From Fibrobacter succinogenes subsp. succinogenes S85 (GTDB lineage: Bacteria; Fibrobacterota; Fibrobacteria; Fibrobacterales; Fibrobacteraceae), in the NCBI RefSeq assembly GCF_000146505.1, contig NC_017448.1:3780001-3812000 (forward strand): a DNA stretch of 32,000 nt. Reading direction: 5' to 3'. A program made the translations under genes and the position numbers. Below, one piece after another: positions 1,760 through 21,666 of this stretch (within the stretch, counting starts at the first letter, position 1; every line of letters starts with the position of its first letter). The notes below the pieces were generated by a model. It saw only the letters and a list, made by a program, of their open reading frames with translations, ran no database searches and had not been told where the DNA came from.

Positions 1760-1990
1760 GTGGCTCTCAAGAATGACCTGCAAACGCTCTTAGCTCTTGA
1801 AGGACAAGATCGTGTCTATAAATTTATTTCAGATAAATTTGGTGAACGCGTGACAAAAGCGTTGTTTGAAAACATGGGGGCGAGTATGAAAAAGGAATTT
1901 GATAGCGGAAAAGTTAGAATTAGTAAAGCAGGGACAATTGGTTCGGTAGGAGTTTTGGCTTCGCATGGACACACGTTTTATGGGTCGTAG
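1760..1990 (+). pseudogene. ORF fragment with no convincing start, possibly the 5' part of a frameshifted gene continuing at 1965-2264
   Basis: The track ORF 1595-1990 starts at TTG and runs through a terminator and a REP hairpin, so its 5' third is not credible. The first plausible start is GTG 1760. It overlaps the next ORF by 26 nt in another frame. Confidence 0.25.
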
Positions 1991-2264
1991 AAGGACTCCG
2001 ATTGAACAGTTGAGAGACTTGAACGGGAAATATGTTGTTAATCCGAAACCATTGGAATTGGCTGAAGGAGCAACTCGTTTAGAACATGTATATGACAATC
2101 AGAAACAAAGACTATGCCTTTATCATCCTAAGAAAAGACCATGGGATAGATCGATGCTTTTATCTGAAACGGTAATTCCATGGGCGATTGAGTGGCTTTA
2201 TTTCTATGAAATTTGGCTTTGTACTGGTCAATGGTTGGGCGGTGGAGAGCATCCCGTAAGGTAG
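1965..2264 (+). CDS. Hypothetical protein with an E2/UBC-like H-x9-C-L...W motif
   Basis: 99-aa ORF. The segment LEHVYDNQKQRLCLYHPKKRPW has the same His-to-Cys spacing as the E2 signature HPNIxxxGxICL...W. The C-terminus is Trp-rich (IPWAIEWLYFYEIWLCTGQWLGGGEHP). Confidence 0.4.
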   Translation: MDTRFMGRRRTPIEQLRDLNGKYVVNPKPLELAEGATRLEHVYDNQKQRLCLYHPKKRPWDRSMLLSETVIPWAIEWLYFYEIWLCTGQWLGGGEHPVR

Positions 2265-2305
2265 ATGTAATTGCTTTTTTTTTCACGCTTCGGAAAAAAA
2301 ATCCC

Positions 2306-2388
2306 GTTTTGTCACAAACTGTCAAAATGGATTATGTATTTTAGGGGTGTGAAAAGTGCGCTTGTCACGCTAGATGGTTTGACAAGCG
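2306..2388. promoter_or_regulatory. Operator-like TTGTCA half-sites and a 9-bp inverted repeat upstream of the first Panacea antitoxin gene
   Basis: ttttgtcacaaactgtcaaaa (2307-2327), plus a perfect inverted repeat cgcttgtca (2359-2367) and tgacaagcg (2380-2388), lying 31-60 nt upstream of ATG 2419. Confidence 0.3.
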
Positions 2389-2418
2389 TTGAATTAAACT
2401 CTATCTTTGTGGTGTAAA

Positions 2419-2982
2419 ATGAAGACTCTAGAGCAAATAAAGAAAATCGAGAATGTGATACTCTATGTATTGCAGAAGTTTGATGACGGCGTAGACTACA
2501 TCAAGCTTTTCAAGATAATCTATTTTGCCCAAAGGGATTACCTGTGCCGTTTTGGCAAGACTTTGGTCCCAGAAACTTTCAAGGCCAGGATGCATGGCCC
2601 TATCCCGACATTGACCGACAAGGTCATAAAGAATGTCGAAGATGGGGTGGGTGACGATTTCCCCGACTTGAAGGAGTTCATGGAATCCATCAAGGTTGTC
2701 GACCAGAAGGTCTATGCCTTGAAAGAGCCGAATCTGGATTTTATCGCAAAGAAGGAACGCGAGTACCTCGACAAGTGGTTTGACTACTGCAAGGACAAAA
2801 AGTCCTATGACCTGTCCGAGGAATCTCACGATGCTGTTTATCATAGCGTTGTCGCCAGGTCCAAGAAGGATCCTCAGCAGGATGTTATGACGAATATCGA
2901 TATTGCGATGTCCGGTCACGCTTCCGACAAGATGATTGAGTACATCCGCGAAAAAGAACTTCTTGTTGCCGAGTTAGCGTAA
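2419..2982 (+). CDS. Panacea/DUF4065 (SocA/PanA-like) antitoxin domain protein, pair 1
   Basis: The segment IKLFKIIYFAQRDYLCRFGKTLVPETFKARMHGPIP matches the DUF4065 core (KLqKLlYfaq...g.pl....f.aw.hGPV). I prefer ATG 2419 to TTG 2407. Its stop overlaps the next start (TAATG). Confidence 0.75.
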   Translation: MKTLEQIKKIENVILYVLQKFDDGVDYIKLFKIIYFAQRDYLCRFGKTLVPETFKARMHGPIPTLTDKVIKNVEDGVGDDFPDLKEFMESIKVVDQKVYALKEPNLDFIAKKEREYLDKWFDYCKDKKSYDLSEESHDAVYHSVVARSKKDPQQDVMTNIDIAMSGHASDKMIEYIREKELLVAELA

Positions 2983-3473
2983 TGGAAGACAAAAACGGAG
3001 TTCTTGCCAAACTTCATGACGAAGTTTGCGTGGTGAAGTATGCTGAAGACTTGCATGTCGGTGATATCATCTATGTGCAGCTTGATTCGGCGGATGGCAT
3101 TAATACCCAAGGGTATCCCACTAGGCTGAAATATGTTGTTGTTTCCGGAGCTAAGTCGGACCGGAAACAGATTGCTGCAGTTTTGATAAATTCGGAAAAC
3201 GATTATTCCAACGATCCTGAATGGCAAAATGAGCAGTACCTGCTTTCTCAGAAGAATTATGCCGATTTTTTGGAATACGACAGTTGGCTGGACTGTTTTG
3301 AAATTAAGGAACTCAAAGTCCGCAAAATTGTTGCAAGGAAAGCTGAAAAGAAAGGTTGCTTGAATAATTATGACTTGCGTGTCATGATGCAGAAATTGAA
3401 GGATTCTGAATTCATCGACGAACACCTGAAAAAGGTGTACGGGATAAATTCATTTGAGTTGCCTGAAAATTAG
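2982..3473 (+). CDS. Uncharacterised toxin candidate partnered with the Panacea antitoxin, with a MazF/PemK-like sequence pattern
   Basis: 163-aa ORF that is translationally coupled. The order GDIIYVQL...RLKYVVVSG...IAAVLINSE...YDSWLDCFEIKEL...KKGCLNNYDLRVMMQKL parallels MazF (GDIVWVDF...RPAVVLS...CVPCTT...ADQVKSI...KKGTVAPEELQLIKAKI). Confidence 0.6.
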   Translation: MEDKNGVLAKLHDEVCVVKYAEDLHVGDIIYVQLDSADGINTQGYPTRLKYVVVSGAKSDRKQIAAVLINSENDYSNDPEWQNEQYLLSQKNYADFLEYDSWLDCFEIKELKVRKIVARKAEKKGCLNNYDLRVMMQKLKDSEFIDEHLKKVYGINSFELPEN

Positions 3474-3583
3474 TGGGGCGAGGGATAGGTTTATAAACGA
3501 GGAATGCTGACTTCTGCGAAACCGAAGCCATCAACAACCAGGTGTCCTTTTACAAGACCGATACTTTCATAAGGAATAAATAT

Positions 3584-3757
3584 ATGACTTACGAATTTGA
3601 TCTTCATGAAAGCAGGGAAGAAGGAAGGAAAGAAGCTGAGGCTAAGGCGTTGGAAGAGAAAAAAGCCATGGCCAGGGGATTCCGCGATGACGGATTTCCT
3701 TTAGAAGCTATTTCTAAACGAACCGGATTTACAGTCGAAGAAATTAAAGCGTTGTAG
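3584..3757 (+). CDS. Small charged/HTH-like protein resembling the C-terminal tail of Rpn/YhgA-like putative transposases, possibly a gene remnant
   Basis: 57 aa from ATG 3584. The EEGRKEAEAKALEEKKAMARGF...ISKRTGFTVEEIKAL pattern resembles that tail. A strong terminator follows. Confidence 0.4.
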   Translation: MTYEFDLHESREEGRKEAEAKALEEKKAMARGFRDDGFPLEAISKRTGFTVEEIKAL

Positions 3758-3785
3758 CTTTTTTCTGCTTCAAAATCTTTTCTAC

Positions 3786-3818
3786 AGAGCATCGCAAATT
3801 GCGCTGCTCTTTTTTTTG
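3786..3818 (+). terminator. Rho-independent terminator
   Basis: Stem agagca/tgctct with an inner gcaa/ttgc stem (3786-3810), followed by a T8 run. Confidence 0.7.
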
Positions 3819-3831
3819 TTGATGCGGAGTA

Positions 3832-3860
3832 TTGACAAACGGAAAAAACTTGTGTATATT
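3832..3860 (+). promoter_or_regulatory. Sigma70-like promoter candidate for the second Panacea pair
   Basis: TTGACA (3832-3837), a 17-nt spacer, then TATATT (3855-3860). The direct repeat tgtgtatat occurs twice just downstream. The promoter consensus for this phylum is an assumption. Confidence 0.3.
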
Positions 3861-3971
3861 TTATAGTGTACAAATGTGTATATCTGAAGCTTGTGAAAAG
3901 AATGAAACCTTGTTTTGGGGAGATGTTGACTGAATGTATTCTTTTTCATATTTTTATAGAGAAGGTGTTTA

Positions 3972-4514
3972 ATGTCTGCTTTTAAACCGCTATTTGGCAA
4001 AGAGGTCTTGCTTAACGCAGCTTTGTGGGTTGCTACGAAGTTGCCCGAAGACCAATGTCGCTTGCATAAGATTTTTAAAATCTTGTGGTTTGCTGACTTA
4101 TACCACCTGAAAAAATATGGTAGGACTGTTACAGGTGATACCTATATCGCTATGAATAATGGTCCTGTTCCATCTGTTTTATACGATGAAATGAAGTTTA
4201 CGCCTTCGGAAGGAGATGCGTTTCGGAGGTTTGACAAGGGCTCTGAAAAAGGGTTTGTTGTTCCTTTGAAAACTGTTAATTCTGATTTCTTGTCGGAATC
4301 AGATATAGAGGCTTTGTCGTATTCTTTTGATTTGTATAAAGATAAATCATTTGATGAATTAACTCGATTGTCCCATCAGCATGCATGGAATTCTGCACAA
4401 AAATCTGGTATGAATACATCCATCAGGATAGATGAAATTCTGGATGAAATTGGTGCTGATTGCGAATTACGCAAATATGTAAAAGATGATATTCTTTTTA
4501 GGCAGGCTCTTTAA
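3972..4514 (+). CDS. Panacea/DUF4065 (SocA/PanA-like) antitoxin domain protein, pair 2
   Basis: LHKIFKILWFADLYHLKKYGRTVTGDTYIAMNNGPVPSVLYDEM matches the DUF4065 core. The next ORF starts 2 nt downstream. Confidence 0.75.
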   Translation: MSAFKPLFGKEVLLNAALWVATKLPEDQCRLHKIFKILWFADLYHLKKYGRTVTGDTYIAMNNGPVPSVLYDEMKFTPSEGDAFRRFDKGSEKGFVVPLKTVNSDFLSESDIEALSYSFDLYKDKSFDELTRLSHQHAWNSAQKSGMNTSIRIDEILDEIGADCELRKYVKDDILFRQAL

Positions 4515-4516
4515 TT

Positions 4517-4924
4517 ATGGACTTGCCAAAAAAGTTAATAGGGGAATTGTATTCTGAACGCGGTTCTGTCGTGCATTCAGAGATGAATTCTGTGATAAAG
4601 ACGGATCACGGAAAGTATTTGTTGGTAGTTAAGAAAACGGAATCTCTAATTGTATGTTGCTCTATCAATACGAATAGGGTGTATTTCAAACCAGAAGAAT
4701 CTCAGCCTAAAATTCTGAAACGGGAAAATGATTTTCTTGATCATGATTCTTATGTGGATTGTGCTCAGGTTTTTTCGATTGAAATGCAAAAGTTTTATGA
4801 TAATATCAAAACAGGTGTTTTTGTGCCGATAGGTTTTTTGAATAATCTTGCTATGGCAGCTGTTCTTCGTGCCGGGCAGACCTGTAGAGTTTTGAAAAAA
4901 TTCGAGCAGGAATATTTTAAGTAA
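4517..4924 (+). CDS. Uncharacterised toxin candidate, distant paralog of 2982-3473
   Basis: 135-aa ORF. It shares the layout KYLLVVKK...IVCCSINTN...DFLDHDSYVDCAQVFSIE with the first candidate (DS[YW][VL]DC motif). Confidence 0.55.
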   Translation: MDLPKKLIGELYSERGSVVHSEMNSVIKTDHGKYLLVVKKTESLIVCCSINTNRVYFKPEESQPKILKRENDFLDHDSYVDCAQVFSIEMQKFYDNIKTGVFVPIGFLNNLAMAAVLRAGQTCRVLKKFEQEYFK

Positions 4925-4953
4925 AACAATAAATTTAAAATAGGAGAATATAA

Positions 4954-5384
4954 TATGCTGACTACTATATCGCATATTTCGATGTTCTTGGCTGTAAATC
5001 GTTCTTCTCTGGCAATGAACAGGCTGAACTTGAATTCGTACAAAATTTGAAGAAAAAGATAGAGCGTTCTGTGAAGTCTGCGATTTCAATTAATAGTTCG
5101 TTCGTACTGAGTCAACTTGCTGATATGCGAGTGGAATATAAATTGTTTTCAGACAATGTTGCTTTATGGATGTATTGAGAGATAATATAAGCAAGTATTG
5201 TAATTACGACGACATTGATAATAAAAACTCTGATGATGTGGCGGCAAAGGCAAAAGTTATTCGTAAGTACAAATGGCTTGTTGTTTATCATAATCAGTTG
5301 TGCTATATGCATAAAAAAGAAGATTGTATTTTGACCATCAATTATACATTTGATTCTGTAACTTTGAATGAATGCATGAATTAA
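4954..5384 (+). pseudogene. Decayed gene in three consecutive frames, with a palm/class III cyclase-like N-terminal pattern
   Basis: An AGGAG RBS sits before ATG 4955 (31-aa ORF). The open frame 4954-5178 reads YADYYIAYFDVLGCKSFF...(45 aa)...KLFSDNVALW. A third frame covers 5142-5384 (track ORF 5166-5384). Confidence 0.3.
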
Positions 5385-5509
5385 AAGTCTATATGTTATA
5401 GCCTTATTGCTCTTTTAAATAACTTCTGTGGAAGATTGCTTTAATCTTGTTTGGAAGCCGTTGCAAGTAGATTGGTGTGAAATCGCTCCCATGCAAATTA
5501 GATTTGAAT

Positions 5510-7699
5510 ATGAACTACGATTTCTCTGTTTTAAGCGATAATGATTTTCAAGAAATGGTCGATAAACTCTTGATTGGTAAAACAAGAGTCGTTGAACAGT
5601 ATGCCGAAGGCCGTGATAATGGGATTGATGGACTTGTCTATGACCTCCCTAAGGAAACCATCGTTCAAGCGAAACATTATCTTAGGTCTGGTTTTAGCAG
5701 GTTAAAGAGTGTAATAAAAAAAGAGGAATTGCCAAAAATTCAAAACGAGAATATTTCGTGCTATGTTTTAGCGACATCTTTAAATTTATCTCGGAATCAG
5801 GCTGAAACATTAAGAGCTTTGATAAAGAATGTCGTTCAAGACGTAGTTGTTTTGGGTGCGGTTTCAATAAGTGGTCTACTTGACAAAGATCCTGCGACTT
5901 TGAAATCTACCATAAAGTTGTGGGCGACGAACGCCGAAATAGTTAGGATGCTCTTTAAACCCGCTAACATGAACTGTTTTTATGAACTGCAGAACCGATG
6001 GGAAGACTTAAATAATGTGTTTGTTGAAACTCCTGATGTGAAGAATGTGGTGGATTCGCTAGAAAAGAACCATGTAGCTGTAATTGCTGGCGAACCTGGC
6101 GTGGGAAAGACTACTTTGGCTGAATATATTTGTCTTCTTTATTTCAAAGAAGGGTATGAGGTTCATTTCTTTGAGGGTAAGTTTTCGCACGACGATTATG
6201 ATTTAAGTGATACGGAAAAGAAGATTATCTTCTATTTTGATGATTTTTTAGGTAGCACCTATTACAACTGTTTCTCTGGGAAACAGGACTGTTCTATTGT
6301 TAATTTCCTAAAACGGATGTCAAAAGAAAAGAACAAACGATTTATTCTTACTTCTAGGACGAATATCATTCAAAAAGCATGTGCCTATAGCCAAAGATAT
6401 CGAGATTATCGTCTTACGAAACGGGCGTATATAGTTAATGTGGGGGAATACTCTTATTTAACAAAAGCTAGAATTTTGTACAATCATTTGCAAAATTCAA
6501 ATGTGGGGGCTGGTGAAATTGCGAACATTGTGAAAAACAAAGCTTATAAGACGATTGTTGAACATAGAAATTTTAATCCCCGACTAATCCATTTTATTAC
6601 AAAACAGGAGAATTTTGAAGATTCGCAACAAGAACATTATTTAGAGTTCATCATTGAATCATTGGATAATCCTAAAGAAATTTGGGAAAATTGCTTTACA
6701 GGGCAATTAGACTCTTCTCAACGCCTTTTAGTTCAATTAGTTGTTGCTAATCGAGAAAAAATTCAAGAGAGTACGCTCAAGAATGCATATAGTAAAGCGC
6801 TTGTTGTAATGGGTATAAAAATTCCTGAACTGGAACGTAATGATTTTGAATATGTTTTGAGTGGGTGTCTTCGATCTATCTTAAGAAGGGATGTTGAAAT
6901 ATCGGGTGGATGCAAGAAAGCTATTGTTTCTGTGTTTAACCCATCTGTTACCGATTATGTATTGCCCACCATTTTAGAAAGAGATATAATAGTTAAATTG
7001 TGTAGTGTTCTTGGAACGGTTGATTCCATAACAATTATAGAATCAAATGAAGAAAAAATTGATGATGTTCAATCGATCTATAGGGATATTGTAAAAGAGA
7101 TCCCTAAAAAAACGTGGTCAGATGCGAAAATTCGTTTAATTCGCCTTATGGGAAATAAGTGTGGGCTTGTTCCTAATCTGATAAAATATGCTATAAAAAA
7201 TAACGACATAATTACTGATGATAATAAATTTGATTTTTATTTTATCGTTATAGAAAATTTATCCAAATATGACTTTTCTGAATTTATCATATGCTGTGGT
7301 TGGTCTTTTTGTAACGATTATTCGGATTTTGGTGCTATTTTAGAGGGTTATAGAAAAACATCTTTTGCTCAACATTTTGTTATTGAATATCTGCAAGAAT
7401 GTGTGTATGAATCATTGCTTGATGATATTGAAAATATTTTGGGAAATGAAACTGATGCTTTTATATGTACATCATGTGAAGAAGTTGCGGAAGAAATGAA
7501 AATTTTTTTGGAGGAAATCAAAGATACGTATCCATTTTTGAAAGAAGATGAAATTGACTCTATTCGCGAAAATGTTGATTTAAAAAGTATTGTTGATCGA
7601 AATTTTAAATTTTTTGAATCTGCAAAAAATAGTAGTTGCGAGAAAAAAGAGCAAGAAGATATAAAGAATGTTGATGCTTTATTTAGTGGTTTGTTGTAG
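5510..7699 (+). CDS. Mrr-like PD-(D/E)xK nuclease fused to a STAND-type P-loop NTPase with a helical C-terminal region (defence candidate)
   Basis: The N-terminus LSDNDFQEMVDKLL...GRDNGIDG...IVQAKHY has a restriction-endonuclease-like core. Walker A is GEPGVGKTT and Walker B is IIFYFDDFLG. RFILTSR is a STAND/NACHT-like motif. I prefer ATG 5510 to GTG 5477. Confidence 0.8.
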   Translation: MNYDFSVLSDNDFQEMVDKLLIGKTRVVEQYAEGRDNGIDGLVYDLPKETIVQAKHYLRSGFSRLKSVIKKEELPKIQNENISCYVLATSLNLSRNQAETLRALIKNVVQDVVVLGAVSISGLLDKDPATLKSTIKLWATNAEIVRMLFKPANMNCFYELQNRWEDLNNVFVETPDVKNVVDSLEKNHVAVIAGEPGVGKTTLAEYICLLYFKEGYEVHFFEGKFSHDDYDLSDTEKKIIFYFDDFLGSTYYNCFSGKQDCSIVNFLKRMSKEKNKRFILTSRTNIIQKACAYSQRYRDYRLTKRAYIVNVGEYSYLTKARILYNHLQNSNVGAGEIANIVKNKAYKTIVEHRNFNPRLIHFITKQENFEDSQQEHYLEFIIESLDNPKEIWENCFTGQLDSSQRLLVQLVVANREKIQESTLKNAYSKALVVMGIKIPELERNDFEYVLSGCLRSILRRDVEISGGCKKAIVSVFNPSVTDYVLPTILERDIIVKLCSVLGTVDSITIIESNEEKIDDVQSIYRDIVKEIPKKTWSDAKIRLIRLMGNKCGLVPNLIKYAIKNNDIITDDNKFDFYFIVIENLSKYDFSEFIICCGWSFCNDYSDFGAILEGYRKTSFAQHFVIEYLQECVYESLLDDIENILGNETDAFICTSCEEVAEEMKIFLEEIKDTYPFLKEDEIDSIRENVDLKSIVDRNFKFFESAKNSSCEKKEQEDIKNVDALFSGLL

Positions 7700-7882
7700 T
7701 TTTTTTTGTAGACCGTTTTGCATTAATTTAATTTTGAACAAATTGCGAACATCTGATTGAACGAACTCACTTCCAAAAACTTTTGAGCTTCGCTCCAAAT
7801 CCGCTGCGGCTCGTAAATGCCCGAAAATCGGTCACTTCTCTCGCCTTGCTGGATTTATTATATTTGAAAAGTACGAGGAATT

Positions 7883-7920
7883 AAAAAACGCGCAGGCTAA
7901 TCAATAGCCTGCGCATTTTC
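7883..7920 (-). terminator. Terminator of the GH116-like gene (symmetrical, possibly bidirectional)
   Basis: Stem gcgcaggct (7890-7898) and agcctgcgc (7906-7914) with a 7-nt loop. A T-run follows on the minus strand (aaaaaa at 7884-7889 on plus), and attttc follows on the plus strand. Confidence 0.7.
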
Positions 7921-7940
7921 TTGTGCGTTGAATTTTCCGA

Positions 7941-13160: not shown

Positions 13161-13675
13161 ATTTCCCCATACGCTTCTACGAGTTTCTCGAATTTGACAG
13201 CGCAGTTGGCGGGGGAGGTGGACGGCAATTTGACAGCCTTGATTCCGGTCGCCTTTTCGCAGTATTTTTCGTAGAGTTTGTGCGCAGTGGCGCCTGTGCA
13301 AAAGATGCGCTTGATTTTCGTTTTCGCAATGAGCGATGCGATATCATTCGGCACGACGTCTTCAATGCTCGTATCGCTTGCTCCAATGATAGTGCAACTG
13401 TCAAGAACGTCCCACAATGCGATATGGTGTTCTAAAAGCATCGCTTTTTTCTCGTCGATGGTCTCAGGGGTTGGCTCATTCAAGACGCTTGCGAGAACTT
13501 TCCAGAACCGGTTTTGCGGATGCCCATAATAGAATCCCTGTTCGCGCGATTTGGGCGAGGGGATGGAACCAAGCAACAGAACCTCTGATTTTTCATCGAA
13601 AAGTGCAGGAAACTCATGCGTTACCCAAGTCCTCGTATTCTTTACGGTTCTAGATTGCGTCTTCTTAATTGCCAT
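13136..13675 (-). CDS. Uracil-DNA glycosylase superfamily protein, DNA-deoxyinosine (hypoxanthine) glycosylase-like
   Basis: VLLLGSIPSPKSREQGFYYGHPQNRFWKVL and LPSTSPAN motifs. The last seven codons and the stop lie inside repeat DNA. Confidence 0.75.
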   Translation of the reverse strand: MAIKKTQSRTVKNTRTWVTHEFPALFDEKSEVLLLGSIPSPKSREQGFYYGHPQNRFWKVLASVLNEPTPETIDEKKAMLLEHHIALWDVLDSCTIIGASDTSIEDVVPNDIASLIAKTKIKRIFCTGATAHKLYEKYCEKATGIKAVKLPSTSPANCAVKFEKLVEAYGEIRRETTNA

Positions 13676-13701
13676 ATTTCTAAAAATAAAAAGATATCTT
13701 A

Positions 13702-13758
13702 CCTCTCGTCACTCGTCTTTCGTCTCTCGTCCTCCTACTGTCTACTGCCTACTAATGA
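13702..13758 (+). repeat. Composite heptad repeats (TCTCGTC type plus CTACTGY type)
   Basis: cctctcgtcactcgtctttcgtctctcgtcc followed by tcctactgtctactgcctactaatga. This is the reverse complement of the composite at 23521-23576. Confidence 0.85.
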
Positions 13759-13814
13759 TACATTGAACTTACCACTTAAAATTGCTATATTTGCCCGCGT
13801 AAAAATGGTTGCGT

Positions 13815-13846
13815 CCTAACCACTAACCACTAATCACTGATTACTG
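13815..13846 (+). repeat. CTAACCA-type heptad repeat
   Basis: cctaaccactaaccactaatcactgattactg, ending 4 nt before the prfC ATG. Confidence 0.85.
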
Positions 13847-13850
13847 CTCC

Positions 13851-15416
13851 ATGAATCCAGAAATTGAAAAACGCCGCACTTTCGCCATCGTCAGCCACCC
13901 TGACGCCGGTAAAACCACCATCACCGAAAAGTTCCTGTGGTACGGGAATGTGATTCGCGAGGCTGGTCACGTGCGCGCGAAGGCCAACAAGAGCTATACC
14001 GTTAGTGACTGGATGAAGATTGAACAGCAACGTGGTATTTCTGTTTCGAGTTCCGTGTTGAACTTCCCGTTCGAAGGTTGCATGTTCAACCTCGTCGATA
14101 CCCCGGGGCATCAGGACTTCTGCGAAGACACGTACCGTGCGCTCACCGCCGTGGACGCCGCTCTCGTGCTTATCGATAGTGTGAACGGTGTTGAAAAGCA
14201 GACGATTCGCTTGATGAATGTCTGCCGCATGCGCCATACGCCGATTATCACGTTCATCAACAAGATGGACTTGGACGGCCGCCATGTGCTCGACTTGCTC
14301 GACCAGATTGAAAGCGTTTTGCAGATTAAGACTGCTCCGTTTACGCTCCCGATTGGCGTCGGTAAGCTTTTCAAGGGCGTCTATTCCATCGCCGAAAATA
14401 CGTTCCACACGTTCAACCCGGACGATGGCAAGCAAGAGATTATCCAGATGGAAGGACCGGATGATCCGCGCCTCGTTGAACTCTGCGGTGAAAACTGGGT
14501 GAATCAGTTCAAGGAAGAGTACGAAATGGTCACGGGCGGTATGGATCCGTTCGACCACGAAAAGTTCCTCAAGGGCGAAATGTGTCCGGTATTCTTCGGT
14601 TCTGCCGTGAACAACTTCGGTGTGCGCCAGCTTTTGAACGCTTTTGCAAAACTCGCTCCTCCGCCGATGATCCGCGACACCGACAAGCGCCCGGTTAAGC
14701 CGGACGAAGACGCTTTCAGTGCATTTGTCTTCAAGATTCAGGCCAACATGGACCCGAAACACCGCGACCGCACGGCATTCCTCCGCATTTGCTCGGGCAG
14801 CTTTACCCGTGGCGAAAAGGTTTTCCACGTGCGTACGGGCCGTGACATCCGCTTGGCTGCTCCGACCGCGTTCCTCGCGAAGGACAAGGAAGTGATTGAC
14901 CACGCCTGGGCGGGCGACATCGTGGGTATCAACGATCCGGGACTTTTCCGCATTGGCGATACGCTTACGGATGGCGAAAAGATGAACTTCACGGGCATTC
15001 CGGACTTTGCTCCGGAACACTTTGCCCGCGTGACGCTTTTGAACCCGCTCAAGTCTAAGCAGATGGCGAAGGGCCTTGCCGAACTTTCGGAAGAAGGTGC
15101 AACGCAGCTCTATGAACCGCTCAAGTCCGCTGTGCCTGTCGTGGGCGTCGTGGGTGAACTCCAGTTTGACGTGCTCAAGTTCCGCTTGCAGAGCGAATAC
15201 GGCGCCGACGTGCAACTTGACCGCGTGCCAGCTCATTGCATCCGCTGGGTGAAGGGTCCCGAAGCCGATGTCGGCAAGTTCGCCGAAGAATACGCCGGCG
15301 ATTGCATGATGGATAAGGAACGCAATCTCGTGTGCCTCTTCCCGAATGAATATCGCCTGAACCTCGCGCTCAAAAACTACGAACGCTTGAGCTTCGCCGA
15401 AACCTCTCAGGGGTAG
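13851..15416 (+). CDS. prfC: Peptide chain release factor 3
   Basis: RRTFAIVSHPDAGKTTITEK, DTPGHQDF and NKMD GTPase motifs, with RF3-typical length (521 aa). Confidence 0.95.
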   Translation: MNPEIEKRRTFAIVSHPDAGKTTITEKFLWYGNVIREAGHVRAKANKSYTVSDWMKIEQQRGISVSSSVLNFPFEGCMFNLVDTPGHQDFCEDTYRALTAVDAALVLIDSVNGVEKQTIRLMNVCRMRHTPIITFINKMDLDGRHVLDLLDQIESVLQIKTAPFTLPIGVGKLFKGVYSIAENTFHTFNPDDGKQEIIQMEGPDDPRLVELCGENWVNQFKEEYEMVTGGMDPFDHEKFLKGEMCPVFFGSAVNNFGVRQLLNAFAKLAPPPMIRDTDKRPVKPDEDAFSAFVFKIQANMDPKHRDRTAFLRICSGSFTRGEKVFHVRTGRDIRLAAPTAFLAKDKEVIDHAWAGDIVGINDPGLFRIGDTLTDGEKMNFTGIPDFAPEHFARVTLLNPLKSKQMAKGLAELSEEGATQLYEPLKSAVPVVGVVGELQFDVLKFRLQSEYGADVQLDRVPAHCIRWVKGPEADVGKFAEEYAGDCMMDKERNLVCLFPNEYRLNLALKNYERLSFAETSQG

Positions 15417-15431
15417 TTTAGACGAGAGTTG

Positions 15432-15458
15432 AAAGGTGGGGACCCCTTTGCTTTTTAA
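15432..15458 (+). terminator. Candidate rho-independent terminator of prfC
   Basis: Imperfect hairpin aaaggtggg-gac-cccctttg followed by cttttt. Confidence 0.5.
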
Positions 15459-15497
15459 CTCGATGTTTGTTATATTTGTACTCAACCGCTAATATAC

Positions 15498-15512
15498 GGG
15501 GGTGCTCTGGTT
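15498..15512 (+). repeat. Exact 15-nt duplicate of the tmRNA 5' end
   Basis: gggggtgctctggtt occurs at 15498-15512 and again at 15651-15665, in the same orientation. Confidence 0.9.
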
Positions 15513-15650
15513 GGCCAAAATTCCTGCTACTCGCAGCAATTTTGCCCTCCGGGTCTTTCGAACGCATGCGTTCTCAAGAGCTTAAATGCTCGCTAGCTCG
15601 CATTTAATCGACAGGCCTGTCTCAACCGAGCATCCTTGTGTAGAACACAA

Positions 15651-16008
15651 GGGGGTGCTCTGGTTTCGACAGGGTTACCGAAGTGTTAGTTGCAAGTCGA
15701 GGTCTCAGACGAGGGCAACTCGTTAAAAAGTCTGAAAAAAAATAAGTGCTGACGAAAACTACGCACTCGCTGCCTAATTAACGGCAACGCCGGGCCTCAT
15801 TCCGCTCCCATCGGGATGTACGTCCGGACGCAATATGGGATAGGGAAGTGTCATGCCTGGGGGCATCTCCCGAGATTTACTAGGCTGGTCAAACTCCGCG
15901 CCGACCTTCTTGGGCGTGGATAAGACGAGATCTTAAATACGAAGGGAACACTTGTAGGAACGTACATGGACGTGATTTTGGACAGGGGTTCGACTCCCCT
16001 CACCTCCA
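15651..16008 (+). ncRNA. ssrA: tmRNA (SsrA), tag ADENYALAA
   Basis: The 5' end is GGGGGUGCUCUGGUUUCGACAGGG. The 3' T-arm GGGGUUCGACUCCCC is followed by CACCUCC-A, which pairs with the 5' end and includes a G3:U wobble. CCA is not encoded. The tag ORF gct gac gaa aac tac gca ctc gct gcc taa lies at 15748-15777. Confidence 0.9.
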
Positions 16009-16016
16009 GAAAAAAA

Positions 16017-16045
16017 AGAACTCACTATGTGAGTTCTTTTTTTGT
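16017..16045 (+). terminator. Terminator of ssrA
   Basis: Stem gaactcac/gtgagttc (16018-16025 and 16029-16036) followed by a T-run. Confidence 0.75.
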
Positions 16046-16099
16046 TTTGTAAGAACCGCTCGGCTCTTTCTTTCTAAATTGAAATCAAAAGGAGGTTGT

Positions 16100-16513
16100 A
16101 TGGATTGCAGAATCTTAGTCCGTTTCATTGGAGTCCAAGAGGATCTTGATGCGTTGTGGAGCGCATTCATGGAACATTTCCCGGAGGCCGAACTGCCGAG
16201 CGTCGATTCCGGAGAATGGTATTCCGTCGAAGATTACATGACCGATGAATACGAATGCCGCTTCGAGGTACTGCCGGAGTCCGAGCTATATGCAATCGAT
16301 GGAACTTTCCTTGTCGAAAACGAACCGCCCGAGGATGTCCTGACCGAAATTCTGGAACGCTTCGAACGCGTGTATGCCGTGTTCAAGTGGTCTACGATGG
16401 ATGTTGGGGTAGGCTGCGGTACCAGCGAAGGCTGGGGCGAGTTCAATGCCGACCGCGCCGATGACGGTTCCGACGAAGCGAACGAAATCTCCGAAGCTGT
16501 CCTCGGATTTTAG
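16100..16513 (+). CDS. Acidic hypothetical protein
   Basis: 137 aa from ATG 16100, preceded by an AAAGGAGG RBS. No family is recognised. It is convergent with the radical SAM gene. Confidence 0.6.
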   Translation: MDCRILVRFIGVQEDLDALWSAFMEHFPEAELPSVDSGEWYSVEDYMTDEYECRFEVLPESELYAIDGTFLVENEPPEDVLTEILERFERVYAVFKWSTMDVGVGCGTSEGWGEFNADRADDGSDEANEISEAVLGF

Positions 16514-16548
16514 CCATTTATTTTACGCCATTTATTTTACGCCATTTT
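16514..16548. repeat. 14-nt tandem duplication (2.5 copies) spanning the radical SAM gene stop
   Basis: ccatttattttacg occurs at 16514-16527 and 16528-16541, followed by a partial copy ccatttt. Confidence 0.85.
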
Positions 16549-17625
16549 CTCAAGCAGTGTATCGCAGATTTCTGCGAGCATTCTTTCGTGCGTACACACT
16601 TCGGGTGACACTCCTTCTATTGTCCCCGTCGTGTAGTAGCTCGTGCAGGCGCACTCGTGCGCACAGCAGCGGTAGCGGATGTCGCACCCCTCGCATTCCT
16701 TTTTGTCGTTGTCTAAAAATACTCGAATCTTGTCACAAGCCGCTTCGTCAAAGCCGGTAAAAACGTTCCCCTGCACATAGTGGGTGTTTGGGTTTGAGGT
16801 GATAAACCGTGTGCAAGGGAACATATTCCCGTTTGTCGCAACACCGATGGCTCCATTGTACACATGGCACGAATAAAGTCTGTATCGCGAATTAATAAGT
16901 CTTATTTTTACTTTGTCGTGGATTGTGCCGAGGAAGAACTTGTCGCCTTTCTCGCGGCATTCTCTCCAGTAATCTGCCATTTTCTGGTATTGCAAGGCGA
17001 GCTTGTCAAAATCTTCACCGCTCCACTTACCGTCAAAATCAACACTTGTGGTAAGGCTCTGGAATCCCTGTTCGTGCAGCCACTTGACGCTCTCAAAAAG
17101 CGTGCTGACGTGGGCTCGCGTGACGGTGCTTAACGCGACTGCGCCGAGTTTCACGAATCGCGGAATATGCTTTTCGATGGCCTTGAAACTTCCCGTATTG
17201 TTGACGGTGCGGCGCGCGATATCGTGGTGGTGTTCCGGCCCGTCGAGTGAAAGATAAATGCGGAATTTTTCGCGTTCGCAAAAGTCAAAGAATTCGTCGT
17301 CAAACAGCGTGGCGTTTGTGTTGACCGCAAATTGCAACTTGAAATTTTTTGAGATTTTGCCTTTGTCCATCGCGTCATCGACAATCGCCTTTGCGAATTC
17401 AACACCTTTATAAATGGCGTCCCTTCGCAAAAGCGGCTCCCCTCCAAAGAACGTGATGTTCAAGTACGACTGCCTAAAGAAAATCGTGCGGTCGAGTGCA
17501 ATTTTGATGGCCTGCTCGAGGGTTGCATCGTCCATGACCGTTTTGCGGTCTGCTTGCGATTCCTTGTAATAGCAGTAGGTACAACGTAAATTACATTGTT
17601 CTGTAAGGCAAAGGACTAAATTCAT
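16537..17625 (-). CDS. Radical SAM enzyme with a C-terminal SPASM domain (peptide/protein maturase type)
   Basis: CNLRCTYC (CxxxCxxC) lies near the N-terminus, with a GGEPLL motif. The C-terminus has CX12GX4C (CHVYNGAIGVATNGNMFPC) and the cluster CEGCDIRYRCCAHECAC. I prefer the start MNLVLCL (ATG 17625), which overlaps the upstream stop as ATGA. Confidence 0.9.
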   Translation of the reverse strand: MNLVLCLTEQCNLRCTYCYYKESQADRKTVMDDATLEQAIKIALDRTIFFRQSYLNITFFGGEPLLRRDAIYKGVEFAKAIVDDAMDKGKISKNFKLQFAVNTNATLFDDEFFDFCEREKFRIYLSLDGPEHHHDIARRTVNNTGSFKAIEKHIPRFVKLGAVALSTVTRAHVSTLFESVKWLHEQGFQSLTTSVDFDGKWSGEDFDKLALQYQKMADYWRECREKGDKFFLGTIHDKVKIRLINSRYRLYSCHVYNGAIGVATNGNMFPCTRFITSNPNTHYVQGNVFTGFDEAACDKIRVFLDNDKKECEGCDIRYRCCAHECACTSYYTTGTIEGVSPEVCTHERMLAEICDTLLEKMA

Positions 17626-18251
17626 GCTTGAATGTCGTCTTGCTCGAACGTGGTGACCATGCTGAATATCATACACGAGCCATCATCGCAGATGTGTATG
17701 CGAGGGTTGAGCGTATCTATGGCAGGTGTGGTTTGAGTGGCAGGGATTGCTGTTTTGCTGCTACTAGACTTTTCCTCGGACGAGCTTGACAGCGTTTCGC
17801 TTGATGAAGAATCTTCGTACGGCGGGAGAATGCCTGCTTCTGGAGGTGGCTCGTAAGACGAACTGCTAGGTTTTTCGACGGAAGAACTGCTGAGACGTTC
17901 AGAAGACATGACCATCGGGGAACCCGATTCTGGCGGCGGGTACACCATGGAGCTACTCAATGGCTGCATTGCAGAGGATAGTGCTTCGATGGCTTCGCTG
18001 CTGAGATGTTCTCCGCTTGAAGAAATGTCGGTATAGCTAGAACTGCTGTATTGTTCTCCGCATGCCGCCTGTCCGCATGTCGGTTCGTTCTCTGGCTGCT
18101 GCTTGGGATGGTCTCCGCTATTTGCCGATACACTGTCATCGCAAGCTGTTGCACCGATGGATGCCGCAATTCCGAGTGCAGCTGCGACCGCACTTTGGGT
18201 AAAATGGCTCAATTTTGAGCTTTTGACGACTTTCTTCTTCTCAATTTTCAT
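17622..18251 (-). CDS. Ser-rich putative lipoprotein with a conserved Cys/acidic C-terminal tail, paralog B
   Basis: MKIEKKKV...AAALGIAASIGATAC signal/lipobox, about 150 aa of Ser/Pro/Glu low complexity, and the tail IHICDDGSCMIFSMVTTFEQDDIQA. A GAGG RBS is present. Its stop overlaps the radical SAM start. Confidence 0.8.
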   Translation of the reverse strand: MKIEKKKVVKSSKLSHFTQSAVAAALGIAASIGATACDDSVSANSGDHPKQQPENEPTCGQAACGEQYSSSSYTDISSSGEHLSSEAIEALSSAMQPLSSSMVYPPPESGSPMVMSSERLSSSSVEKPSSSSYEPPPEAGILPPYEDSSSSETLSSSSEEKSSSSKTAIPATQTTPAIDTLNPRIHICDDGSCMIFSMVTTFEQDDIQA

Positions 18252-18275
18252 GGTTCCCTCTAACACTTGCAGATC

Positions 18276-18845
18276 TTATACATTGTCAAACATTTCGTAT
18301 GTGGACACCATGCTCACTAGCGGAAAGTCGTCATCGTCATGGCACATAATGACGTTTACGCCCATAGAATCAATTTTGTTGCAATCTCTTGGCCATGGTG
18401 GGACGACTTCTGTGGAACTGCTAGATTCTTCCTTGACGCTCGACGAACTGCGGGGCTTTTCGACAAATGTGCTGCTAGAACTTTCGGATGAGCTGCTGAC
18501 GATTTCTTCTGACGAACTGCTTTGAATTGGTGCAACAGAAGAGCTGCTTGGCGTTTGTACGGAAGAAGAAGAAAGTGCTTCGATGGCTTCACTGCTGAGT
18601 CGTTCGTGGCTCAGCGGAATATCGGTTACAGAAGAACTTGATTGTATTTCGGGGCTTTCGGAGGCGTCGCTGCTGTTTGGATTGTTGTTGTCTGGTTCAA
18701 CAGGGCCGATAACCTGACCACTTTCAGCATCGCCTGTACAGCCGCTCATCAAAATTGCGGACATGCCAAGCATTGAGGCAACACCTGCCTTGGTGGCATT
18801 CGACAAACGTGAATTTCCGGTAACTTTCTTCTTCTCGATTTTCAT
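18276..18845 (-). CDS. Ser-rich putative lipoprotein with a conserved Cys/acidic C-terminal tail, paralog A
   Basis: MKIEKKKV...SAILMSGC lipobox, a Ser-rich linker, and the tail VIMCHDDDDFPLVSMVSTYEMFDNV. An AAGGAGG RBS is present. Confidence 0.8.
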   Translation of the reverse strand: MKIEKKKVTGNSRLSNATKAGVASMLGMSAILMSGCTGDAESGQVIGPVEPDNNNPNSSDASESPEIQSSSSVTDIPLSHERLSSEAIEALSSSSVQTPSSSSVAPIQSSSSEEIVSSSSESSSSTFVEKPRSSSSVKEESSSSTEVVPPWPRDCNKIDSMGVNVIMCHDDDDFPLVSMVSTYEMFDNV

Positions 18846-18990
18846 AAAAATTTTCCTCCTTACATCCTTACACCATGTTAATATAGTTTGTTTTGGAATA
18901 TAAAGTGTAATTTGGGGCCTTTTTTGTGATTGGCTCTGAACGTTTTTGTTGCATCCGTTGCATATAGGCGTTGCGACTTCGCCGCAGTTG

Positions 18991-19087
18991 GCAGAACTTA
19001 GTTGGTAGAACTTAGAATATGCAAAAAATGCATCCGGAATCCCGAATGCATTTCTCTAAGTTCTAAGATCTAAGCTCTAAGTTCTAA
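18991..19087. repeat. Inverted TTAGAAC-type heptad arrays flanking a hairpin
   Basis: The left arm is gcagaacttagttggtagaacttagaa and the right arm is ctctaagttctaagatctaagctctaagttctaa. Confidence 0.85.
19022..19053 (-). terminator. Terminator of ilvBN
   Basis: Stem atgcatccgg (19028-19037) and ccgaatgcat (19042-19051) with one mismatch. A T6 run follows on the minus strand. Confidence 0.6.
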
Positions 19088-19090
19088 AGG

Positions 19091-19585
19091 CTAAGTCTTA
19101 TCTTCACCGCGGAGCATGATGACCTTGCCCGTGCGGATGTATTCCACGATTTCGAACTTCTGCAACAAGCTCTTGAGGGTATCGACCTTCTGGCTGTTGC
19201 CCGTAATCTGGATAATCATGGACGTCATCGTCATATCCACCGTGTTGGCGTGGAAATGGTCGCAAAGCTGCAAGATTTCGGTGCGCTGTTCTGCAGTGCA
19301 ACGAACCTTGATGAGGGCAAGTTCCTTTTCCACAGCGTCCGTACCGGTATGGTCCTTGGCCTGAACCACGTCCACGAGCTTTTCGAGCTGCTTGATGATT
19401 TGCATCAAGATTTCGGGATTGCCGTGAGCGATGATGTTCATGCGGCTGAAGTTCGGGTCGAGCGTGGGGGAGACGACGAGAGAATCGATGTTGTAGCCAC
19501 GGCGGGAGAACACGAGTGCAATACGCACGAGCACGCCCGGGCGGTTTGCCACTAACAAGCTAATAGAATGTGCAATATCTTTCAT
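19091..19585 (-). CDS. ilvN: Acetolactate synthase small (regulatory) subunit
   Basis: The ACT domain signature ISLLVANRPGVLVRIALVFSRRGYNIDSLVV is present. The length is 164 aa and it lies downstream of ilvB. Confidence 0.9.
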   Translation of the reverse strand: MKDIAHSISLLVANRPGVLVRIALVFSRRGYNIDSLVVSPTLDPNFSRMNIIAHGNPEILMQIIKQLEKLVDVVQAKDHTGTDAVEKELALIKVRCTAEQRTEILQLCDHFHANTVDMTMTSMIIQITGNSQKVDTLKSLLQKFEIVEYIRTGKVIMLRGEDKT

Positions 19586-19600
19586 TTTCTAATTCTCCTA

Positions 19601-21319: not shown

Positions 21320-21666
21320 AATTTATCCTGTCTTTTAAAGAATAGATGAAAATTTAGATGAGCTGAAATATAGGAGTAATTTTTGAGGGTGGCAAGAGGT
21401 AAAACCCGACTTTTGTGAAATTTTTTGAAATTTTTAGTGAAATTTTATTTTGAAACGACCTGTTTTGGTGTAAAAATTGAAAAATTTTCGTTAAATTTTG
21501 AAAAATCGCACTTTGAATAAAGTAAAAACTAGTGAATTTTGGATTAAATTTCTGTTTTATGGAACTTGAGATGCTGAAATAATTGATTTTGGGAAATTGT
21601 CTCCCTGGAACGATATTCCTCCTTACTAAGTGGGCATCCCGCGTTTTTTTTTACTATTTTAATCTT

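Follow-up and report, generated by a model that had tools for sequence, protein, structure and literature searches.

The 32,000-nucleotide stretch of the Fibrobacter succinogenes subsp. succinogenes S85 chromosome analyzed here (NC_017448.1, forward strand, positions 3,780,001 to 3,812,000; hereafter the window, counted from its first nucleotide) contains a complete gene for a 729-residue protein, in which an Mrr-type nuclease domain, a STAND nucleoside triphosphatase (NTPase), and an acidic helical domain presumed to be a sensor follow one another from the N- to the C-terminus (Table 1). The open reading frame (ORF) was translated into 729 residues and a stop codon with no interruption, and the opposite strand of the same segment was full of stops. 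The list of ORFs also contained a longer version starting from a GTG codon at position 5477; we regard the ATG at position 5510 as the real start, as the homologues all start at the same MxYDFS. The motifs that a first-pass annotation of the window had named in this protein (a D...QxK core, Walker A and B motifs, and RFILTSR) were each read in the intact ORF. Against the models of PADLOC, the protein was matched over its full length by PDC-S73 (E = 1.6e-152, 508 bits; residues 1-726 of the protein and positions 1-750 of the 752 in the profile), and the other matches at E ≤ 1 were two Argonaute-associated (Aga) models, mad8, and MkoA only. The gene is simply a member of the PDC-S73 family, a candidate family catalogued before, so that the architecture described below is not new. 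The conservation of individual residues was counted among 236 aligned full-length members of the family (median identity to the query, 29%), which are the relatives referred to in Table 1 and in the following paragraphs.

Table 1. Features of the 729-residue gene, its surroundings in the window, and the phage-borne relative (window coordinates unless a locus is named; aa, amino acid residues)
Feature	Position	Strand	Basis
Two overlapping ORFs, CBASS-like	1595-1990 and 1965-2264	+	PADLOC; left edge of the islet
AT-rich islet of 5.7 kb carrying the 729-aa gene	about 2265-7940		GC content
Two tandem paralogous modules, each a SocA/Panacea gene followed by a small PemK/MazF-like ORF	2407-3473 and 3972-4924	+	Pfam
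Two small ORFs, 71 and 72 aa	3542-3757 and 5166-5384	+	Position within the islet
Complete gene, Mrr-type nuclease / nSTAND3 NTPase / acidic helical sensor (PDC-S73 family)	5510-7699	+	Open frame, PDC-S73 match, AF2 model
N-terminal Mrr-type PD-(D/E)xK nuclease domain, aa 1-120	5510-5869	+	Secondary structure, Mrr_cat matches
Catalytic core of the nuclease, D40 ... Q53-A-K55, preceded by E29 and D36	5627-5674	+	Conservation in 236 relatives
Helical linker, aa 121-170, near-invariant K136-L137-W138 (5915-5923)	5870-6019	+	Helices at residues 117-164 (AF2), conservation
STAND nucleotide-binding domain, nSTAND3 (PF20720), aa 171-328	6020-6493	+	E = 9.3e-44
Walker A, G194-EPGVG-K200-T201	6089-6112	+	K200 in 236/236, G199 in 234/236
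Walker B, IIFYF-D244-D245	6224-6244	+	D244 in 235/236, D245 in 234/236
R277-FILTS-R283 motif	6338-6358	+	T281 in 235/236, R283 in 236/236
STAND helical and winged-helix domains, aa 329-476, invariant H352-RNFN-P357-R358	6494-6937	+	AF2, conservation, fold matches (Avs5, CED-4, ZAR1, NRC, Apaf-1)
Variable, strongly acidic, all-helical C-terminal domain, aa 477-700, presumed sensor	6938-7609	+	Identity, isoelectric point, model
Acidic C-terminal tail, aa 701-729, conserved motif V721-D-A-L-F725 (7670-7684)	7610-7696	+	Conservation
Terminator-like hairpin with a 10-bp stem, between the 729-aa gene and the convergent GH116 gene	7890-7914		Sequence
Transfer-messenger RNA (tmRNA) gene, tag ADENYALAA	15651-16011	+	Rfam RF00023, 168 bits, full length
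787-aa family member, 'restriction endonuclease', temperate Clostridium phage HM T (KU517658.1)	L092, 4998-7361

The nuclease domain adopted the order alpha-beta-beta-beta-alpha-beta in the AlphaFold2 (AF2) model, and its core reads G34-R-D36-N-G-I-D40-G ... I-V-Q53-A-K55-H-Y. Among the relatives, D36 was kept in 231, D40 in 232, Q53 and K55 in 233 each, and E29 in 216. The first-pass annotation had read an Mrr_cat-like restriction-endonuclease core at the N-terminus and named loss of the catalytic residues among homologues as the finding that would speak against it; D40, Q53, and K55, retained in 232-233 of the 236, bear the assignment out. The Pfam search proposed for the same purpose gave a divided answer. 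On the 729-residue protein itself, the Mrr_cat match remained sub-threshold (17.9 bits against a cut-off of 21, residues 8-59), reaching E = 0.0034 with the isolated nuclease domain as the query, while 22 of the 26 aligned family members examined were matched, the best of them with E = 9.5e-9. The linker that connects the nuclease to the NTPase is marked by a triplet retained almost throughout the family (K136 in 230, L137 in 234, and W138 in 235 of the relatives). As a separate observation, residues 1-193 (positions 5510-6088) matched positions 1-193 of the Argonaute-associated PADLOC model Aga_TIR-PNTD1-PNTD2 (E = 6e-25), and the nuclease and linker were matched as well by positions 1-138 of Aga_REase-TIR-PNTD1-PNTD2 (E = 4e-18), which suggests, at the level of sequence profiles, that the nuclease module is common to effector proteins associated with prokaryotic Argonautes. 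Literature searches for the labels 'PNTD' and 'PNTD1/2' returned irrelevant matches only.

The NTPase was assigned to nSTAND3 with 149.3 bits against a gathering cut-off of 27.2, over positions 1-154 of the 155 in the profile, and the same domain was present in 26 of 26 family members. All the other P-loop families of Pfam scored at or below their own thresholds, and the matches in NCBIfam were sub-threshold P-loop matches only. K200, D244, D245, and R283 were each retained in at least 234 of the relatives, and the motif R277-FILTS-R283 is presumably the sensor-1 arginine motif of STAND NTPases. The STAND type read by the first-pass annotation is therefore upheld; assignment to a non-STAND housekeeping family, the outcome that would have contradicted it, was looked for and the family turned out to be nSTAND3. 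We rule out a housekeeping NTPase on the basis of this match together with the fold matches and the genomic context described below. Downstream of the nucleotide-binding domain, the model placed helices at residues 334-453 and then a beta-hairpin at residues 458-475, with H352 and P357 kept in 234 relatives each and R358 in all. Altogether, D40, Q53, K55, K200, D244, D245, R283, and R358 were each conserved in 232-236 of the 236 relatives.

The first-pass annotation had seen about 350 residues of helical sensor after the NTPase. The helical character stood; the extent did not, as the first part of that region (residues 329-476) is the helical and winged-helix module of the STAND switch and the presumed sensor is confined to the remaining ~250 residues (477-729). 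The C-terminal domain opens with an invariant N477-P-S479-xx-D482, in which D482 was kept in 236 of the 236 relatives. Beyond this point conservation falls steeply: among homologues less than 45% identical to the query, the identity to it was 0.38 in the nuclease, 0.45 in the nucleotide-binding domain, 0.36 in the helical and winged-helix module, and 0.17 in residues 477-729, and in most of the 150 hits listed in the representative search the best matched stretch stopped near residues 490-530 of the query. Such a pattern is expected of a fast-evolving sensor. Despite the ~17% identity, the net charge of the domain was about -20 to -23 across the family; the isoelectric point (pI) of the domain in the query is 4.4 with a net charge of -20, and the median pI of the family is also 4.4 (interquartile range, 4.3-4.5). 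A structure prediction of the isolated domain, as the first-pass annotation had proposed, gave a confident, all-helical model (pLDDT, i.e., predicted local distance difference test score, of 87.6); the fold search with it, which yielded no significant match, is taken up below.

The tail of the protein is conserved out of proportion to the region in which it lies. F725 was kept in 233 of the 236 relatives, an invariance similar to that of the catalytic residues and yet found inside the most variable region of the protein. Of the 236 relatives, 191 carried a terminal [I/V]-D-x-L-F motif within their last 25 residues, compared with 45 of 1,652 control windows, and the last ~60 residues, which lead up to the motif, consisted on average of 27% aspartate and glutamate in the family members. 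The last nine residues were modelled with a pLDDT of 81 in the full-length protein, and the corresponding blocks received 50 (residues 717-726) and 44 (residues 727-729) in the isolated C-terminal domain, the two models having been built from different alignments. As the tail was placed confidently only in the presence of the N-terminal half, the models hint that it docks on that half, and the conserved C-terminal L-F might dock at the K-L-W of the linker (residues 136-138). The almost invariant C-terminal phenylalanine motif and the uniformly acidic sensor are the two oddities of this protein.

The AF2 model of the whole protein, based on 94 homologues, was confident (mean pLDDT of 88.2; predicted template modelling score of 0.78) and ordered the domains as listed in Table 1, with the all-helical C-terminus spanning residues 477-729. 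In a Foldseek search with this model, the best match among PDB structures was the SIR2-STAND protein EfAvs5 (9jap, E = 4.8e-8), followed by Avs4 bound to a phage portal (8dgf, E = 2.8e-7), human SAMD9 (9zjs), and an AVAST5 filament (9nc9); proteins of apoptosomes and NLR resistosomes (ZAR1, CED-4, NRC, the Dark apoptosome, and Apaf-1) were found further down. Both the 729-residue protein and the profile of the 94-sequence family matched only P-loops among the sequences of PDB entries, and thus the protein has no solved relative at the sequence level.

The PDC-S73 family is large and uniform. The homologues recovered by a word-indexed search numbered more than 2,131 and were about 725-790 residues long, many of them carrying precomputed Mrr_cat and nSTAND3 annotations. 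In a full HMMER scan of residues 171-729 of the query against 1.84 billion cluster representatives, we detected 2,775 clusters, formed at 50% identity, with E ≤ 1e-3, of which 1,044 reached E ≤ 1e-30. Nearly all of the best 150 representatives possessed the NTPase at around residue 175 of a protein of ~750 residues, implying a remarkably uniform architecture, and no alternative effector was found among these 150. The PDC systems are 145 'phage defence candidates' that a guilt-by-embedding screen predicted from genes lying inside BREX, DISARM, or type I restriction-modification (R-M) loci, PDC-S73 being a single-gene candidate (bioRxiv 10.1101/2024.01.29.577857). The NTPase of Avs5 was nSTAND3 (PF20720) in the proteins studied (bioRxiv 10.1101/2025.07.08.663546 / PMC12931631), which ties the NTPase of the present protein to the Avs5 chassis; nSTAND3 is not described in the paper on nSTAND1/2. 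A survey of prokaryotic STAND proteins, in which 589 clades were distinguished, 198 of them were regarded as defence-associated, and Avs7-24 were named, included Mrr-containing STANDs among its search seeds (Lee et al., 2026, PMC13581612). On account of these seeds, the PDC-S73 family was probably included in the tree of that survey.

We examined the genes surrounding the relatives at two levels. Among seven annotated contexts, a small sample without a control of its own, defence genes were found within ~5 kb of the family member in four, the published background rate for defence neighbours being 1.5%. The homologue of Fibrobacter sp. UWT2 (72% identity) has genes for a KAP NTPase, Thoeris ThsA/ThsB, RloB with AAA_21, and Abi_2 nearby; P0090 lies within a type I R-M operon, with AbiEi/AbiEii on one side, hsdS/hsdR on the other, and an integrase and a D5-type primase on the same stretch; P0083 adjoins a methylase and ResIII pair resembling a type III R-M system, as well as HTH-Peptidase_M78 and DUF4411 genes; and P0014 adjoins AAA_13, Mrr_cat, AAA_15, and RloB/AAA_21 genes. 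In a fifth context (P0057), there was only an upstream HsdM_N fragment of 94 residues. A wider sample of 56 genomes from more than 10 phyla (loci L012-L091) supplied 112 immediate neighbours, in which the commonest families were those of defence ATPases, namely AAA_15 (5), SMC_N/AAA_23 (4), and the TOPRIM domain of OLD (2; PADLOC LmuB, AriA, GajA, and Old), and those of R-M components, namely ResIII (3), N6_Mtase (2), and Eco57I (2), and many housekeeping genes were found as well. No partner gene recurred among the 112 neighbours, with the largest homologous cluster comprising three members and the commonest Pfam family 5 of the 112. Thus, we regard the PDC-S73 gene as working alone. A small downstream partner was considered and rejected, since the ORFs of 139-163 residues found in three relatives were mutually non-homologous except for one duplicate record.

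The family is mobile as well as widespread, being found in more than 10 phyla and on 44 plasmids, 25 of which are conjugative. The member carried by the temperate Clostridium phage HM T sits between replication genes and a sigma-factor gene, beyond which lies an integrase-family gene. In 95% of the 56 genomes the gene was more AT-rich than its flanks (median difference in GC content, -0.069), and the largest gap among the annotated contexts was that in Aeromonas media (0.32 vs 0.64; L003).

In the window, the gene resides in an islet with a GC content of 0.365 (0.335 in the gene itself, against 0.505 in the rest of the window), which is flanked by a gene for UDP-GlcNAc 2-epimerase (positions 396-1580) and a convergent gene for a GH116 glycosidase. 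The two overlapping ORFs at the left edge, directly after the epimerase gene, matched only the C-terminal parts of CBASS (cyclic-oligonucleotide-based antiphage signalling system) proteins, namely positions 289-386 of 388 in a cyclase profile (E = 6.5e-17) and 65-139 of 149 in an E2 profile (E = 1.5e-33), and on these matches look like the remnant of a truncated CBASS operon. In the two tandem modules, the first proteins contained SocA/Panacea antitoxin domains (E = 7e-13 and 2e-21) and shared 31% identity, and the downstream ORFs, which shared 30%, matched PemK/MazF weakly and below the threshold (E = 0.02 and 0.05); judged from these similarities, the modules are probably toxin-antitoxin (TA) pairs of the PanA type. 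Neither Pfam nor PADLOC gave a match to the two small ORFs of 71 and 72 residues, which are candidate genes at most. The edges of the islet bore no direct or inverted repeats of note, and neither an integrase nor a tRNA gene was found at the islet. No methyltransferase domain was detected in the neighbouring genes or the other large ORFs scanned across the window, in agreement with the statement of the first-pass annotation that this is not a classical R-M system. The islet represents a small defence hotspot, in which a degraded CBASS, two Panacea TA-like pairs, and the 729-residue gene have accumulated.

We compared the protein with the closest known systems. With the PDC-S73 model it agrees from end to end in length and domain order, with no structural difference, and the presence of its relative P0090 in a type I R-M operon is what the method by which the PDC systems were discovered predicts. 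Avs5 shares with it the nSTAND3 family, the best fold match, a single polypeptide of similar size, and the order of effector, NTPase, and helical C-terminus. In contrast to Avs5, in which the effector is a SIR2 NADase, the present protein bears an Mrr-type nuclease and gave no Pfam match to SIR2 at E ≤ 1; consequently, the predicted output is DNA cleavage rather than NAD+ depletion. It also differs from Avs5 in lacking sequence-level matches to the Avs5 chains and in its sensor, which is of smaller size and highly acidic and has no counterpart in fold. The first-pass annotation was mistaken in describing the protein as much shorter than characterised Avs proteins: the solved Avs5 chains are 764-833 residues long, and a length of 729 residues is thus not unusual. 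Avs4 and Avs3 resemble the protein in combining an N-terminal PD-(D/E)xK-type nuclease with a STAND NTPase, from which cleavage of DNA activated by oligomerisation would be the predicted output. The NTPase of Avs4 belongs to a STAND clade different from that of the nSTAND3 protein. Furthermore, Avs4 has about double the length (1,534 residues in 8dgf) and a large TPR sensor, Avs4 and Avs3 being nuclease-STAND-TPR sensors of the phage portal or terminase (PDB 8dgf). The SAMD9-like families are known to swap effectors, with SIR2 in Avs5, PNP in Avs6, and AlbA_2 in Avs9 (Legrand et al., 2025, PMC12680541). Avs6, Avs9, and SAMD9/9L lie in the structural neighbourhood of Avs5 and illustrate how effectors are exchanged on a chassis related to that of the present protein, but are much longer and carry PNP or AlbA_2 effectors (with or without SIR2 and OB domains); an Mrr effector is not mentioned in PMC12680541. 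The classical Mrr and other type IV restriction enzymes have in common with the protein the Mrr_cat type and the signature GxDxGxDG ... QxK, whereas in the present protein the nuclease forms the N-terminus of a fusion with a STAND NTPase, and no winged-helix domain for DNA reading was detected.

We consider with reasonable confidence that the gene encodes a stand-alone antiphage sensor-effector of the NLR-like (nucleotide-binding leucine-rich repeat-like), Avs-like kind, which was acquired horizontally within the small defence islet. The effector-NTPase-sensor logic of Avs proteins, to which the first-pass annotation had likened the gene, is backed by the nSTAND3 domain, the conserved nuclease, the folds of Avs5 and Avs4, the match to PDC-S73, and the defence genes in the vicinity. 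The proposal builds on the architecture, the catalytic conservation, the fold kinship to Avs5, Avs4, and SAMD9, the membership in PDC-S73, the single-gene organisation, and the mobile defence-island context observed here, and borrows the trigger, the oligomerisation, the substrate, and the abortive outcome from the characterised Avs proteins. At rest, the protein would be an autoinhibited, closed monomer or dimer, in which the C-terminal region is folded onto the half comprising the NTPase and the nuclease. Upon infection, a ligand derived from the phage, most likely a protein, would bind to the variable, acidic, helical C-terminal domain and free the STAND switch, allowing the nSTAND3 module in its nucleoside triphosphate-bound form to oligomerise. 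The oligomer would gather the N-terminal Mrr-type PD-(D/E)xK domains into active nuclease assemblies, which may then cut DNA regardless of its sequence and of whether it is self or non-self, so that phage replication would stop and the infected cell would be lost (abortive infection). Avs3 and Avs4 act as tetramers. EfAvs5 forms filaments (PMC11897194).

Several observations weigh against this proposal. The TM-scores of the fold matches over the whole chains were low (0.24-0.31) and weak as a global match, although flexible multidomain proteins caught in different conformations are expected to score low. No Avs protein was found when the family profile was searched against the sequences of PDB entries, and none of the Avs models in PADLOC was matched at E ≤ 1; the kinship to Avs5 therefore rests on the shared Pfam family and the fold. 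The isolated C-terminal domain found no significant fold match in PDB (Foldseek, best E = 0.13), and as its weak matches were to generic helical proteins of the TPR, PPR, or 14-3-3-like kinds, we did not adopt the interpretation of the sensor as a TPR domain. The sensor is thus short and without a recognisable fold relative, and the binding of a phage protein to it would be pure analogy. As for the genomic context, the copies in Aeromonas and Thalassospira are solitary, with housekeeping genes around them, and the defence genes among the 112 neighbours were counted without a control set for enrichment. Finally, the PDC systems were put into PADLOC for future study and not individually tested (bioRxiv 10.1101/2024.01.29.577857), and we found no published experimental test of the PDC-S73 family, the string 'PDC-S73' appearing in no searchable paper.

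The same features permit a different activation of the nuclease, which we regard as unlikely. In this lock-and-bait arrangement, the C-terminal half would not be a conventional repeat for pattern recognition; instead, its acidic domain and the near-invariant terminal [I/V]-D-x-L-F peptide would act at rest as a DNA mimic that occupies the DNA-binding face of the protein's own nuclease and NTPase, and basic, DNA-binding proteins of the phage, for which single-stranded DNA-binding proteins, recombinases, and packaging proteins are the candidates, would titrate the mimic off and free the nuclease. The hint of tail docking, the conserved tail motif, and the uniformly acidic sensor allow such a scheme. 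If it were true, the activation logic would stand apart from the recognition of folds by Avs1-4 and Avs7-21.

It is improbable, in our estimation, that the protein is a nucleoside triphosphate-dependent, modification-dependent (type IV) restriction enzyme similar to McrBC, Mrr, or SauUSI, in which the C-terminus would read modified DNA, the NTPase would assemble or translocate, and the Mrr domain would cut, with survival of the cell. The catalytic type of the nuclease and the lack of a cognate methyltransferase fit type IV enzymes, many members of the family have been called 'restriction endonuclease' by the NCBI annotators, and the family profile weakly matched the P-loop of McrB, among others (6ut6 and 7vsr, E of about 1e-3). 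These McrB matches were limited to the Walker A region, however, and the NTPase, a STAND switch equipped with a helical and a winged-helix module, is neither an AAA+ GTPase like that of McrB nor a helicase. Moreover, neither an SRA, a winged-helix, nor a DUF3427 fold was recognised in the C-terminal domain, whose net charge is about -20 (median pI in the family, 4.4), and together these properties make the domain a poor DNA binder.

We give still less credence to the gene having no role in phage defence and being instead either selfish, as a module for addiction or stabilisation, or a passenger of the mobile islet that is decaying and non-functional. Its position next to the TA-like pairs and the degraded CBASS, the occurrence of the family on plasmids and in a prophage, and the AT-rich composition as a mark of foreign origin are all compatible with such a passenger; nevertheless, the ORF is intact and retains every residue invariant in the family, no antitoxin-like partner recurs, and the length and architecture are the same in more than 1,000 clusters at 50% identity, a sign that the protein is under purifying selection throughout. 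Least credible is a PrrC-like guard that watches over a partner, for instance a type I R-M complex, and fires its nuclease when an anti-restriction factor of the phage disables that partner. In its favour, the genes behind the PDC models lay within BREX, DISARM, or type I R-M systems, P0090 sits between hsdM and hsdS/hsdR, an HsdM_N fragment precedes P0057, and the acidic sensor could bind basic surfaces or surfaces that bind DNA mimics. On the other hand, no R-M genes lie near the copies in the window, Fibrobacter sp. UWT2, Aeromonas, and Thalassospira, and R-M components amounted to a handful of the 112 neighbours in 56 genomes, none of them recurrent, so that guarding is unlikely to be the general mode of a family of which most copies, including that in the window, travel without R-M genes.

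If functional as an Avs-like sensor-effector, the protein would be among the more compact nuclease-armed, NLR-like immune proteins and a convenient minimal model of a STAND switch that gates a PD-(D/E)xK nuclease. The family is large and widespread but known only as a candidate, and a positive phage assay would turn it into a named defence system. We see the value of the gene, modestly, in offering a compact model system and in prompting a test of a very widespread candidate family. Names under which NCBI lists the members, among them 'restriction endonuclease', 'ABC transporter', and 'GTPase SAR1 family protein', mislead when used to annotate PDC-S73 genes in genomes.

Outside the islet, the window is ordinary chromosome with genes for RF3, tmRNA, a radical SAM protein, a TPP enzyme, MBOAT, and SMC. 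ARAGORN stretched the 5' end of the tmRNA gene to position 15498, giving an apparent gene of 511 nucleotides. The tmRNA gene sits ~8 kb away from the islet and is not its integration site. A promoter scan found sigma-70-like sites no more often in the real than in shuffled sequence and is thus uninformative. Lastly, genes for surface polysaccharides border the islet in the window (UDP-GlcNAc 2-epimerase) and the loci of two Fibrobacter-type relatives (Wzz/Wzc, and Wzy with glycosyltransferases; L001, positions 13449-21442, and L008, positions 1-2513), and there may be a recurrent defence hotspot beside a variable polysaccharide locus.

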